Of a stretch of DNA of 64,000 nt, positions 1 through 6,149 are shown piece by piece; position 1 is the first letter of the stretch, and each line of letters starts with the position of its first letter. Below the pieces are notes generated by a model that worked only from the letters and a program-made list of their open reading frames with translations, did no database searches and had not been told where the DNA came from. The stretch comes from Raillietiella orientalis (Eukaryota): contig JAYWIR010000008.1 in NCBI GenBank assembly GCA_036172245.1, positions 3,534,001-3,598,000 of the forward strand, given 5' to 3'. A program made the position numbers and the translations under genes.

Positions 1-351
1 CGAGAAGAGAAACTGGGTCAAGCGAGCACGGTGGTATTGATAAGCGATTCGACCCACTTTGGAAACACTCAAGAGTGTGAGGACGAGAATTGTACCCTTT
101 CCAGGAAAACTCCTGTCACGTGTGCTTTTTCTTAAACAGGATGGACTCTTTTCATTCCTCTTCGTTCGCCCGTTTCGTTGGGAAATTTTCGAGATTCGAA
201 AGAGGGAAGGTTAAGGTTTCTCCGACGGGGTTGGTATTCCGCAGGGATCCACCGACGCTGCCCGAGTGTGGTGAGTCGCCCCCCATTTGCGCTTATCGCA
301 CGAATCGTTGCTGTTAAATGTGGACAGCACGCAGGGAAGCAGTACGGATCG

Positions 352-458
352 GGTTTCAGAGCGGTGGTCGAATTTCTGGTGGGGGCGGTTGCATGGGAGC
401 ACCAGGGCTTCTCTCTGTATCGTTCCAATTTTAGTGTATGCACAGCCGAAGCGTGTAC
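352..458 (-). ncRNA. U6 snRNA-like sequence: 5' half intact, 3' half diverged (variant, chimera or pseudogene)
   Basis: The minus strand from 458 reads GTACACGCTTCGGCTGTGCATACACTAAAATTGGAACGATACAGAGAGAAG. It has a UUCG-capped 5' stem-loop and a 24-nt exact match to the conserved U6 block ACTAAAATTGGAACGATACAGAGA (435-412). The ATTAGCATGGCCCC..GGATGAC region is absent. There is no upstream TATA box and no T-run at the expected U6 end, so the 3' boundary is approximate. Confidence 0.85.
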
Positions 459-1830
459 TTAGACGACCTCCCATTCCCTTTCACCCCCCTGGGCGTTCCG
501 CGACTCCGTGCGTCTCCCGTCCGGCCCCTGCGTCGCCGCGGCTCTTCCCTCCGCTGGCCGTTCCACCAAGGCGGTCTCCCATCCATCCGGCAGATCTTCC
601 CTTCGCTCCCCAGGCGGGTTCTCTTAGGGCTTCTCTCAGAGCAAGTCACTCTCAGCGTCATGCCATGGTGTAATTAAAGGATCTGGTTCTCGTTCCAGAG
701 GACAACGCTGCTCGTTTTCGAACCCACTTGTGGTGTTTCTTCTGCTTTGTTATGGATGGAACGCCCGTTCATGCAATTGTCTGCTCCCAAACATTTGGAT
801 TTTCAAAGTCCTCGCTCCCTAGGGGAGGAATTTCTTCCAGATCCCTTGGTTGCTTTGGGCACTATTATGTCTCAAGCTCGTCTCTGGAGCTCAACTGATT
901 TATGGATGGATTTCTTGATGTGTTTCTCTTCAGCTCTGCCACTACAACAGGATGTAGCTGTTTCGTCCTTTACCAGAACCAAATTACCGTTCCGTTCAGA
1001 CTCATCAGAATGCACACTTGGGAGGTCAAGCTGGGAACATGAGTGCTCGAGTTGCTGCTGGCAGAAATCGGCAAGACGGAGGACATAGTATGAGCACACT
1101 TTCGGTTTTCCTTGACTGCTTCACACAGTAGCGAATTCGTTCCTCCTCCGCTTTTATAATGACGTGGTGGCTTCATCTCTTTCTCCACTTTTGCGAACTT
1201 GTCCGTAAGCGTGGTAAGGTTCTTTGGAAAGATACCTCCTTAAAGCCGGAAAACCGGAGAGGCTCGCATGCCGAGCTCGGGTTCTCATGCGATTCCCTAT
1301 TCTGACCGCGTCACCTAATCCCAGCCCATCCTCCTCCGATTGAGCCTCGTGCATCTGAATAATTCATAATTCACTTGCTCGTGGAAGTGATTCCTTCACC
1401 ATGCCTTCTGAGTCACCTAACTGCTTCTGCCCGACTGCGCTTCCTTTCAGCTGCTAGCTGCTGCTAGTTATGTGTACTCCAGAATTTGTAATTACACATC
1501 CAAATTGAAAAAACGATCACCAAAACGTGATGCTTTCACAACAGACTTGTGCAACTGGGGAAGGGATGTTCGTCAGGGGAGGTCAGCACGCAGCTGACAG
1601 GGTCACCTTATCAGCATGCGAGTATTCTAAGTGGATATTCCAAGAAGCGCAACGGAGGTCGAGCTTTTCTAGAATGTCGGGAAGACGGAGTCTGGACGTT
1701 TGCGCCGCTGCTTATGCACGCATCTCACGTCCTCGGAAACAAATGGGTATAAAAACTGGGAAGGAGGGGGGGGGGGATCCTCTGGAGCAAATCAGAAAAG
1801 GGAATCACGTAAACTGCGAGCTTTCCGAAT

Positions 1831-1854: not shown

Positions 1855-2447
1855 ATGGAAGAGCGAGTGTCAAATTGATGGACGTGTTTTCTCGTTCCCA
1901 GCTAACCGTATGTGAAATATGCCGAGCTGGGAACGCTTTTCCCGTGGACGCCAGCCAGGGTGGACGAGGGCGCGAAGAGCTGCGCGATCGAAGTGCGCCT
2001 TCGATTCTTTGCTTAATTTGCAACATTTCATCGGCGCCCCTGTCTTTCAGGTTTTCGTGCTTTCTGTGTGAGAGAACAACACAAGCGGAAACGGATCAAT
2101 CCACTGCTGCTACTGCTTTTTTCGAAAAAATTCACACTCGAACGGGCTCTCCTCCGTCTTCTTCTTCTTCTTCCCAGACGCAACGAGACAGGTCGGAGTA
2201 GGGTTCCCCGACGGATCGGCTGGTGCGTGAGAAAATCCGAGGGATCCCGGGAATCAGCAGCCAGGAAATTCGAAAACTTTCCCCCCAGCGTGTACTCTTA
2301 TCGGCGGAGAGCGATACAGCCATCGCGATAGCTGCCGCGGACGGGGCGTACCAGTTCGTGCCGTGGATGCCGCTCGCCTGTCGGCTGGCAAGCATGCCCG
2401 CAGTGGTGCCGCACGCTCCTCCGCATTGACGCTCGAGGCCCTTCGAG

Positions 2448-3724
2448 ATGCTGGAAACCGAGAAGGAAATCAAAGTGCTGGTATGCAATACCCCTCTTTT
2501 TTTTCTTCTTTCTTTCTCCCCTTCCCCCCTTTGAAGAAGCTGTGGAATGCGTTCGCGCCGATCACGCGCCGGCCTGGACGTTCCGTCCAAGCATTCCCCC
2601 CCCCCCCTGCCGTTCTGAAAACTCCGTGCCAGGAGACTTCGTCCCCGGGCGTACTTTGTAAAAAAAAAGAGCTCATTCGTAAACTTTCATTTTCAGCAGC
2701 TGGAGTTTGACTGGCTCTTGCAGCAGGATGTCAACCTGATGTTTGAAGAACTCGCGAGGATACTGAAAGTAAGTTTGCTTCGAAATACAGAAATTATTAC
2801 TCTCCGCACTCGACCATTGAAAGTTGTAGTTTTAATGTGCCATTCAAATAAACAGCATAATTGTTTGTATGACAGAAATGTGATGATATGTTTCTGAGCT
2901 CATCGGATGGGCCAAGTTCCAAAGCAAAACCTGAAACCTTTGTCATGACCTCCCAAAGTCTTAATCAAACACAGCTCAAGTGTGTCGTGACCATGCAGGG
3001 GGATTATATTATTCAAGGGGTAAGAACACCAATCTGAGATACAAGTTGCATCACATATCTTGCAGGATTTGAACATTCAGGTGCACAAGCATCATGTCAA
3101 TGTATATCACACATCCATCGCATCAGATCACCCATGGAAGGTGCAACAGATTCAAGATGCTGCCAATCATCTACAGTTGGCTCTTTCACAAGTGAATCAT
3201 TTGTTGAAAGGAAAAATTTTCCACCTGACTGAAGATGTGCTTTTTCCTCTTAGTCATATCATGAGCTGTCTACAACGCTGCCAGAACTGTTTGCTCGTAC
3301 CAAAAAGAACCAACATCGAAGATCTCATGAAGAGCAAGAACATGGTAATATATGCAAAAAAAGAATCTGATTCAGCAAGGTCTTATTCTTAGAAATGCTT
3401 ATCACCCCTTCTCCCTGCTGATATGGTGATTAGTTTCTATCTGCAAGGTGCCAAGTTGAACTGTGCTTGTTACCGTGTAGCCTATCACCATGGTAAAATT
3501 ACTTTCAAAGTCTGTCAGGCAGAGACCATTGTGCCTTGGGTACGAACAGTGCTTTCCCAACTCACTACAGCTATGCACTTGGCACAGCATTTCAAAGACA
3601 AGGTAACTAATAATATTGTATAGAATTTCTTTTAGTGTCACAATAGTTCCAGGTTTTCACTCAATACAAGGACTGTCTGTCTTTTTCTTGTTCATCTAGT
3701 TCAGCAAGCTCAAGCTCATTGTAG
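2448..3724 (+). CDS. rogdi: Protein rogdi homolog, 6 exons, 271 aa
   Basis: Exons 2448-2480, 2697-2768, 2876-3019, 3066-3344, 3393-3602, 3647-3724, all joined by GT-AG phase-0 introns (216, 107, 46, 48, 44 nt). Motifs QLEFDWLLQQDV, PWKVQQIQDAANHLQ, LLVPKR..EDLMKSKNM, SFYLQ, VPWV and FKDKFQVFTQYKD match the Rogdi family in order. Confidence 0.93.
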
Positions 3725-3750
3725 AGATTGTTTACAGCATAAGATCATGC

Positions 3751-3756
3751 AATAAA
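3751..3756 (+). terminator. Probable rogdi polyadenylation signal AATAAA
   Basis: Canonical hexamer 26 nt after the rogdi stop codon. Confidence 0.65.
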
Positions 3757-3762
3757 GAACAT

Positions 3763-6149
3763 TTATCTGTGTTTTTTCCTCCTGCTTCGGTGCTCTCGAG
3801 AGGGGGTTGTTTCACTGCTACCCACAATGATTTGGCCCTCCTGGATTTCTTGCTTTGTGGCAGCATCAGTAACAGCATTCAGTTTGGATTGGGTGTCCAA
3901 GTAAAACAGCACATCCCTAAGCTGGTCATTGAGTTCTGCTACTTCCTAAATTCTCTGTGCAAGATGCAGTTATACCAATTAGCTGTTTACCTTCTCCTTG
4001 GTTGCCTTCTCCTCCTGAAGCTGCTTGATCTGATTCTGCCAAAGTAACTGGTTCTCGCGCATACATCGATTTAGCTCGCACTCTTCTTGCAGCTGATTTT
4101 GGATATAGGATAAGCGGCTGGTAGCAGCGTTCAGCTGAACAAATAAATGATCTGGATACATGCAATCTAACATACTTTCTTCTCCAGAGCTTGTCGCTCT
4201 TTAGTTAATGCAGCCAGTTGCTCTTCCACCTGTCGGTTCTTCTCCATCACCTGGCGGGTTTGCTGTCCAAATTCTTCAATCTGGGGAGCAACTCCTCAAA
4301 TGAATCAGTCTTGTCACTTACCTTGCGGCTAGCTTCCTTTGATCGCTGGGCCAATTTTTCCTCAAAATAACGACGCTGTGATTCCAGTTGGGAAGTTAGC
4401 AGATAGGTGTACTCCAGTTGTAAGGCATCCAATTTTTCCTCAATCCCTGACTACTGTCCTTATGCAGATTTGCATCAGTTCACCTCACCATCTCCTTATC
4501 TCTCAGATCAATAGAATTGCCATCATTTACTTCTACCAGCTTCCCATCTGCTTTATTCTGCAATAATCGATGCACAAAGTTGTCGCCAACATAGTCCCAA
4601 ACACGGTTGCTGCCCAATTGCATTGCAAATGTGTGTTGGGTGTCCACAAAGTGTCTATCAGCTTCATGCTTTTCATCCCTGCCTTACTCACTGGTAGGCA
4701 TGCCGATTTTCATATCGACCACAACCTACATGGCCGCAGATGAGGCAAATCCATAAGCCCTGCATTGCGCCACATTGCAGGCAACAATTATCAGCACTTA
4801 ACTCAGGTGTCTGGGAGTGGCGGCAAACAGGGCAGCTGGGCAGAAAACTGATATTAGCTGTTGTAATCCCCTGTTTCCTACCTGATGTCTCCCCATTTAG
4901 ACAAGCAATTTCCATGAAATGTATGATTGCAAAGAATAGTCAGCACTCCATCCAAGGATTCATCCATGCGTTCCAAACATACTGGACACATGGGCAGTTC
5001 TGTATGTCCCACTACAGAAATGTTCACATAGCAATTTATAACCTAACTTGAATCTCACCAATTGGTAATCCACCTCCTTCAGATTCCTTGGTCATTTCAA
5101 TACTCGCAATGTACACCAGATGGCAAACATTTGGCTCCAACAGATTGTACTGAATGTTGTTAAAACTCTGGAAGAACTCATCGGCAGCATTCTGAACTTC
5201 GACTTCTGTGTTCTACCCAATTACCTGGCTGCAGAACTTGAGTAACACCATATACTGATTGGGTGTGGAATCTCGAATGATTCGGACATGCTTGATCTCA
5301 GGATAGCAGGGGGCAATAAAATTTAACAGATCATGTGTAGTCATTGTTGCTGGAACAGCAAGCATGCATATCATATCACTCCGGGGGACAGGGTCTCTCA
5401 ATGAGATAAGATGACTGAAAAAACAAACTTTTGTGCCTTCAGCATAGAAGTCTCTTTTCTAAGACTATGACAAACATTACAGGAACAGCAAGCATGAAAG
5501 TGATCCATGAATCATCATACCAAACTTACTTTTGCTTAAACAGGTGAAGAATGCCTTTGGTAACTTCCACAAAGGGATTCCCCGAGATGAATGGGATCTG
5601 TTCTTTCACTTTGCACTTCTTATCTTCCACTGCTGACTGTGCATCTTGTACATTGTTCGTTTTCGGTTTCAGGCAGAATTTGGAAGATGCTCTGTGATGG
5701 GGGGTATTCTGTTTGCAAATGGATTCTCTTCCTGAACTCGCGGAACGAATCTCGTCAAAATGCTCTACATTGTCCTGGTCTGGTATTTTCAGATCTTTGT
5801 CCATGCTGTATGACTCCATAGTTATGTTGCAAAACTTCCTCAGCCCCTGATGAAGCTTCAGGTTATCTTTGTACCTGGGATTGCTGTTTGACAAGTTGCC
5901 TTCGGTTTCATCTTTTATGCCATAAAGATCCCTTGACGACGGTGCTAAGGAGTTTCGGACACGATTAAATACCATCCACGAACTTAAACTTAACAAATTC
6001 AAAATTCATTTTACACTAAAACGGTCCGATTCCGAACGAAATTTTCACGTGGAAGCATTGTGGACTACCTTACCCGTGTAATTGATATTTTCAGTTATCG
6101 AATACCCATCGGAAATTTCCAAACGCAGAAGACACAATGATATTGACAT
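3763..6149 (-). CDS. BRAP: BRCA1-associated protein (BRAP2/IMP) E3 ligase: BRAP2 domain, RING-H2, ZnF-UBP, coiled coil; 11 exons, 604 aa
   Basis: Exons 6149-6074, 5944-5530, 5414-5225, 5191-5059, 5011-4882, 4835-4692, 4654-4489, 4450-4322, 4280-4176, 4134-3991, 3945-3763 total 1815 nt with consistent phases. Motifs: [82 protein letters not shown]; Zn[80 protein letters not shown]; basic C-terminus RSRRKKHR. Confidence 0.95.

Follow-up and report, generated by a model that had tools for sequence, protein, structure and literature searches.

Tailless or 3'-truncated small nuclear RNA (snRNA) pseudogenes are a class for which Schmitz et al. (2004) and Denison & Weiner (1982) are reportedly the sources that others cite. 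According to the passages of Doucet et al. 2015 (PMC4476161) that deal with human snRNA copies, 65% of these are 3'-truncated, 70-100% of the truncated copies carry duplications, complementarity is seen at the 3' junction, and an internal-priming route is proposed. Passages of Noll et al. 2015 (PMC5322556) also describe internal priming in tailless copies, with complementarity of 2-18 nt, and the tailless retropseudogene route is extended to all non-coding RNAs in the corresponding part of Kojima 2010 (PMC2912911); a snap-back reverse-transcription junction is described, in a passage of a further report (PMC11371274), for R2 insertions. A search of the literature by titles and abstract openings, which does not prove absence, found no paper on tailless U6 copies in arthropods. 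Here we report that a locus at the start of the window, i.e., the whole stretch of 64,000 nt that was analysed (G000:C8:3534001-3598000 of a 210-Mb genome), is best explained, with a probability of roughly 0.9, as a dead 3'-truncated ('tailless') U6 retrocopy that was internally primed. A 3'-truncated retrocopy was the third option offered by an initial annotation of this DNA, whose headline was a U6 head with a replaced catalytic core, and it is supported by the end of U6 homology at nt 47, by a 12-nt direct repeat, and by a family of U6 stubs in the same genome.

The two best Rfam U6 matches in this genome, L001 and L002, are 107 nt long, finish with a run of T, are preceded by AT-rich DNA, and are probably true U6 genes; they lie 86 kb apart (G000:C38), show three differences in the 5' hairpin, and are each a source of retrocopies. 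In the window, positions 412..458 on the (-) strand were identified by Rfam, BLAST and alignment as U6 snRNA nt 1-47, extending from the 5' stem-loop through the ACAGAGA box, so the U6 5' half reported there is real. With Rfam model RF00026, the match to 458-412 (-) was confined to model positions 1-45, and its 30.7 bits (E 4.9e-5) fell short of the gathering score of 44; BLAST and alignment against L002 both gave 45/47 identical positions, the two changes being A18G and T23C; nt 24-47 are identical to L002, which agrees with the exact 24-nt block through ACAGAGA that had been noted. All three methods place a sharp end of U6 homology at nt 47. The 5' hairpin does fold, with seven pairs and one bulge, as had been claimed, but it is no better than that of the gene, A18G having replaced a U-A pair by a U-G wobble. 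The locus thus has an intact 5' end and a truncated 3' end (nt 1-47 only), no oligo(A) tail follows nt 47, and it lacks the full length, AGC triad, internal stem-loop, U4-pairing region and T-run terminator of a functional U6. No displaced U6 3' half was found within the 83.5 kb scanned around the site, where the best matches were 11 nt long (E at least 0.79).

The bases next to the truncation point belong to a 12-nt direct repeat, a candidate target-site duplication that the initial annotation had overlooked, of which the downstream copy lies at 404..415 (-), overlapping U6 nt 44-47, and the 100% identical upstream copy at 626..637 (-), 222 nt from the other. Anchored exact repeats of at least 12 nt within 330 nt upstream were found in 10 of 23,821 pairs in flank-swapped controls, with about 0.05 such repeats expected by chance over the 120 U6 loci described below; when the junction was compared with tiles of the region, 505 of 506 had no such repeat and the single exception was the locus itself. 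The length of 12 nt fits the duplications of other U6 copies (10-13 nt), which likewise overlap the U6 end, and through the 4-nt overlap with U6 nt 44-47 the target is complementary to the RNA at the 3' junction. A 12-nt repeat that overlaps the last four U6 bases reads, from the letters of the locus, as what internally primed retrotransposition with target-site duplication would leave behind. Between the U6 start and the upstream repeat lie 167 nt, as opposed to 0-50 nt in the 14 further copies that have exact repeats of at least 10 nt, and 'far' repeats of at least 9 nt are, as a class, not clearly above control (5 loci including the window copy, against a control mean of 1.5 and a maximum of 6). 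The T/A-rich L1 endonuclease consensus, which is specific to mammalian L1, is absent at the cut, where the site is purine-rich and contains GC. If the repeat is read as a target-site duplication, the insert comprises 416-625 (167 nt of GC-rich DNA, then U6), and everything from 415 downwards is target DNA. The two extra bases before AAG, taken by the initial annotation as an 'extra AG' that was part of the element, are present, but both they and the AAG are supplied by the repeat copy at 404-415, which has its twin upstream.

The window copy is one of many. An Rfam U6 search of the genome gave 48 matches from 48 scored candidates, and pattern searches gave 39 matches to the U6 core and 88 to the U6 5' end (0 in reversed controls). 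Among the loci fetched, 125 were distinct and U6-derived; five of these (L054, L071, L094, L138 and L140) were left out because alignment gave no 5' end, and the 120 kept, including the two intact copies and the window copy, are a lower bound from a set that was mostly chosen by the 5' end and is therefore silent on the number of 5'-truncated copies. U6 homology ends at nt 20-30 in 23 loci, nt 31-40 in 38 and nt 41-52 in 10, with the longer copies ending at nt 53-70 (6 loci), nt 71-95 (22), nt 96-104 (9) and nt 105-107 (12). Hence 71/120 5'-intact loci stop by nt 52 and are, like the window copy, without the catalytic part, and the asymmetric conservation that had seemed odd for uniform pseudogene decay is the norm among 5'-intact copies. 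Median identity of the copies is 93.9%, and 47 of 118 match the gene at least as closely as the window copy does. Near duplications (score of at least 8) accompany 27 of the 71 short copies, compared to 0-3 in 12 flank-swap controls, and exact repeats of at least 9 nt within 20 nt are present at 14/120 loci against a control mean of 0.06; an overlap of 2-7 nt with the U6 end occurs in 15/15 copies with an exact repeat of at least 10 nt, an uncontrolled count from a scan that favours overlaps.

Several further characteristics of these copies bear on how they arose. Inverted U6 sequence of at least 8 nt precedes the 5' end in 11 of 118 copies (0.01 expected), e.g., in L017, L023, L026, L119 and L056, the last with a second inverted U6 piece, and represents cDNA that snapped back on its 5' hairpin; the window copy has 3 nt, i.e., none. 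L071 (G000:C7:652513-652572, -) carries the U6 3' half without a mismatch (nt 49-107, 59/59), including its T run, followed by a tRNA-like stretch, and has no 5' half. The A18G and T23C changes of the window copy occur together in 5/97 copies (L029, L031, L032, L038 and L069; Fisher p 0.0014), and changes at A in TpA amount to 58/673 versus 65/1433 elsewhere; the pairing suggests either a variant (third or older) U6 source or TpA hot spots combined with age and, given a variant source gene, the window copy may be an exact copy of its template. Across 118 copies, AT-to-GC transitions (0.059 per site) exceed GC-to-AT transitions (0.041), TpA being most affected with little CpG excess; this substitution pattern is unusual and GC-favouring.

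The anatomy of the window copy would be accounted for if the chromosome was opened by a staggered cut of 12 nt, made by an endonuclease-reverse transcriptase of the L1/Tx1 type, and a freed DNA end then annealed to U6 nt 44-49, a single-stranded purine-rich stretch reading GAGA(AG), and primed synthesis inside the RNA. Priming from inside U6 would mean that nt 1-47 alone were copied, and the loss of the 3' part with retention of the 5' part would be explained by a 3' half that was never copied. The 167 nt would have been added before end joining, through a template jump past the U6 5' end or through a second template primed from the other strand, and repair would have duplicated the 12-nt target, the sequence after nt 47 being pre-existing target DNA. 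An extra template joined at the 5' end is seen elsewhere in this genome: L094 (G000:C54:575300-576100) has U6 nt 63-107 (45/45) head-to-tail before a U6 5' stub, which we read as a template jump between two U6 molecules or as copying of ligated U6.

With regard to the enzyme, a reverse transcriptase (RT) profile search of the genome gave 150 scored matches among 3,358 candidates, many of these matches falling in long open frames, and six long open reading frames (ORFs) that were scanned contained an APE-type endonuclease plus RT in four cases and RT only in two. For one tested ORF, the closest solved structure was human L1 ORF2p (E 8e-53, versus 2e-26 for R2), and an L1-like APE-RT enzyme of this kind may have made the window insertion. 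Copies of U1, U2 and U4 were found beside LINE ORFs in 4/10 regions scanned. Arrays of LINE ORF2, spaced at approximately 5.5-5.9 kb and located beside snRNA or 28S sequence, were seen at L176, L178 (U4), L185 (U1, with two copies 5.9 kb apart), L186 (U2) and L188 (28S); these are candidate snRNA- or rDNA-associated L1/Tx1 lineages. Dispersed, decayed 18S and 5.8S fragments were also encountered (L196-L202 and L171-L174; 15 and 5 matches, including one intact each) and are probably rRNA retrocopies.

The part of the proposed insert that precedes U6, at 459..625 (strand not assigned), is a block of 167 nt with 68% GC, as compared to 47.5% over the 200 nt on the far side of the upstream repeat and 59% past the downstream repeat. 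Bracketing by the repeat makes it quite probable that the block was inserted together with the U6 piece. No donor was found: own-genome DNA searches with 459-624, 459-540 and 541-640, in which very common words were skipped, returned the locus alone, and comparison with 189 fetched loci (524,851 nt) gave no match better than E 2.8, the donor search having covered rDNA spacers and the 3' part of 28S only partly. The block had no Rfam match at E<=10, in a weak scan that also missed the partial U6 overlap, and its one ORF had no Pfam match. Two candidate donors were rejected. For L200, a 48-nt match (E 0.015) was equalled by 4/220 control tiles. The GC-rich part of a 28S contig (L175) ranked top under one scoring (1/300 shuffles, 2/191 genomic controls) and failed under two others (22 and 3 of 300 shuffles; 26 and 11 of 191 controls); it was rejected because the likeness depends on the scoring and is far too diverged for so young an insert. 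The block may derive, by template jumping or twin priming, from a source that is unassembled or lost, and the chances are about even that the reverse transcription which copied U6 also captured an abundant, unannotated RNA, of which the block is what remains; that it is native DNA, with a repeat of other origin, is unlikely. The truncated-insertion status of the U6 piece holds whichever origin the block has.

Native origin of the block is part of the explanation that best survives besides the one preferred here, namely that a dead U6 stub was patched into a break without a staggered cut, so that nt 1-47 alone were inserted, the 167 nt were already in place, and the repeat arose by chance or by local templating. 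The failure of every search to yield a donor for the 167 nt speaks for such a patch, as do the frequency of GC-rich patches in the window and the 44/71 short copies without a scored near duplication; the rarity of junction-anchored exact 12-nt repeats among control pairs stands against it, as does a repeat whose length and overlap with the U6 end are those of the other duplications. We consider a patch improbable and, being a variant of the tailless-retrocopy reading, its weight is partly included in the probability given above.

A further explanation supposes that a full-length U6 copy was inserted earlier and lost its 3' half afterwards, either by decay or because another insertion displaced it. 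Its support comes from the DNA downstream of nt 47, which over 58 positions in register without gaps is identical to U6 nt 50-107 at 21 (p 0.032, 20,000 random stretches), and which carries at 375-369 the AAATTCG heptamer noted previously at canonical U6 spacing. The heptamer is where it was said to be, but it matches the U6 of this genome at only 6/7 positions; in-register 6/7 matches to the U6 3' part were found in 17/72 short copies, although the window copy is the only one of the 72 to have one exactly at nt 82-88. At 324-316, 9 nt also match the 3' end of U6. Taken at face value, the in-register p of 0.032 counts against the retrocopy reading; it is marginal, and weak beside the 96% identity before nt 47, which falls to 36% afterwards, a contrast that is incompatible with uniform decay. 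The best gapped local score against the U6 3' half has p 0.25, the 83.5 kb scanned hold no such half, and the repeat accounts for the junction. Decay or displacement of a full-length copy is thus very improbable.

Under the preferred reading of a tailless retrocopy, the stretch at 106..403 (-) would be flanking DNA outside the element, and the 'extra AG', the 32-nt 'core' (most of which falls within this stretch), the heptamer at 375-369 and the T4 run at 109-106 are all most likely flanking target DNA. In a genome search, 411-1 matched itself alone, and the flanks of the window copy resemble those of no other among the 120 U6 loci. The 6-bp CTGGTG/CACCAG stem on which the 32 nt had been credited with a fold of their own does exist; it is unremarkable, being equalled by 21/200 shuffles (z -1.38), and the fold of the first 110 nt was equalled by 63/200. 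The 'replaced catalytic core' is therefore not upheld: U6 homology ends at nt 47, the next bases lie in the 12-nt repeat, and the 411 nt that follow are single-copy. With single-copy downstream DNA and approximately 47 nt that align to the species' U6, the locus is, as far as examined, the ordinary truncated pseudogene that the initial annotation had named as the outcome that would refute its own proposal.

Pfam matched none of 20 ORFs in the 6.5 kb beyond the window start, nor any of the 4 ORFs overlapping 135-1085. Further into the window, 2440-6005 holds a rogdi-like gene (~2440-3400, +, PF10259) and a BRAP2 gene (~6000-3760, -, PF07576) in convergent orientation, with introns of ~50 nt, in an island of 41-46% GC within DNA of 60-68% GC. 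A SNORD95 match at 1381-1426 (E 0.088, 22 bits versus 55) was taken as chance.

The annotation's own proposal was a transcribed, non-catalytic U6-derived RNA of ~350 nt, possibly a decoy for 5' splice sites. The intact 5' hairpin and ACAGAGA box would suit such an RNA, and the first T4 on the (-) strand is indeed at 109-106, 350 nt away, a distance that GC-rich composition alone would be expected to produce. Upstream, AT content at -50 to -20 is 30% in the window copy versus 67% and 70% in the two intact copies, and in-register identity to these is 9 and 12 of 55 positions, as opposed to 25/55 between the intact copies; by both comparisons no type-3 promoter (PSE plus TATA) is present, the PSE of the species not being formally defined, and the remark that the lack of a promoter favours a pseudogene is borne out. 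In addition, the 167 nt upstream are enclosed by the two repeat copies, folding is no better than in shuffles, and conservation is not above that of sibling stubs. With U6 homology stopping at nt 47, single-copy downstream DNA and no upstream U6 promoter, the ~350-nt Pol III RNA finds no support, and we regard such an RNA as highly improbable. The U6 stub most likely has no function; co-option, in which read-through or a cryptic promoter would yield a stable RNA with the U6 hairpin and ACAGAGA box, without the core, and acting as a 5' splice-site decoy, is a scarcely credible prospect judged from the sequence.

Finally, a U6-headed SINE or a U6/LINE chimera with 411-106 as the body of a mobile element is of negligible probability even though snRNA-headed SINEs exist (SINEU, in the relevant part of PMC4494074) and U1, U2 and U4 copies adjoin LINE ORFs in this genome, since 411-1 has itself as its one genome match, only 4 alike pairs were found among 120 downstream flanks, none including the window copy, no other U6 stub has this body, neither flank matched any of 15 fetched LINE-rich regions or 25 RT loci, the far end has no tail or duplication, and the repeat closes the insert at 404-415, leaving neither a multi-copy head with shared body and tail nor a full-length U6 placed 5' of a LINE 3' fragment within one duplication, U6 being truncated.

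By itself, the single locus is of little importance. More than 100 U6 stubs with duplications, internal priming, snap-backs and extra templates would be of moderate value as a record of relaxed L1/Tx1-type machinery in a non-mammalian animal; the cited papers, in the parts that concern tailless copies, link these to therian L1, and the U6 stubs described here are in a non-mammalian host. U6 matches in which the 5' half is kept and the core is absent are expected from internal priming and are not a sign of selection.

Compared to the known systems, as characterised in the pertinent passages of the reports cited, the window locus resembles SINEU (Kojima 2015, PMC4494074) in its snRNA-derived head, for which a Tx1-type partner was proposed in that case; by contrast, SINEU forms multi-copy families with a shared body, while the DNA downstream of the window locus is single-copy. 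U6/L1 chimeric retrocopies (Group IV, PMC4476161) likewise have U6 joined to other sequence inside a duplication, with a full-length U6 at the 5' side of a LINE, whereas here a truncated U6 is at the 3' side. In snRNA/LINE chimeras that arose by twin priming (Doucet et al. 2015, PMC4476161), one duplication encloses a 3'-truncated snRNA together with a second sequence, as seen here; the second sequence of the window locus is, however, not a recognisable LINE, and neither end has an A-tail. The closest match is with the 3'-truncated snRNA pseudogenes of Group III (PMC4476161), which are the tailless retropseudogenes of PMC5322556 and PMC2912911. The window locus differs from these, as the passages describe them, in its invertebrate-type rather than therian genome, in a target that is not T/A-rich, and in the extra 167 nt inside the repeat pair on the 5' side; it shares with them an intact 5' end, truncation at a purine-rich single-stranded site, the absence of an A-tail, direct repeats of short length, a 3' junction at which target and RNA overlap, a large number of dispersed copies, and a genome that contains L1-like ORF2s.
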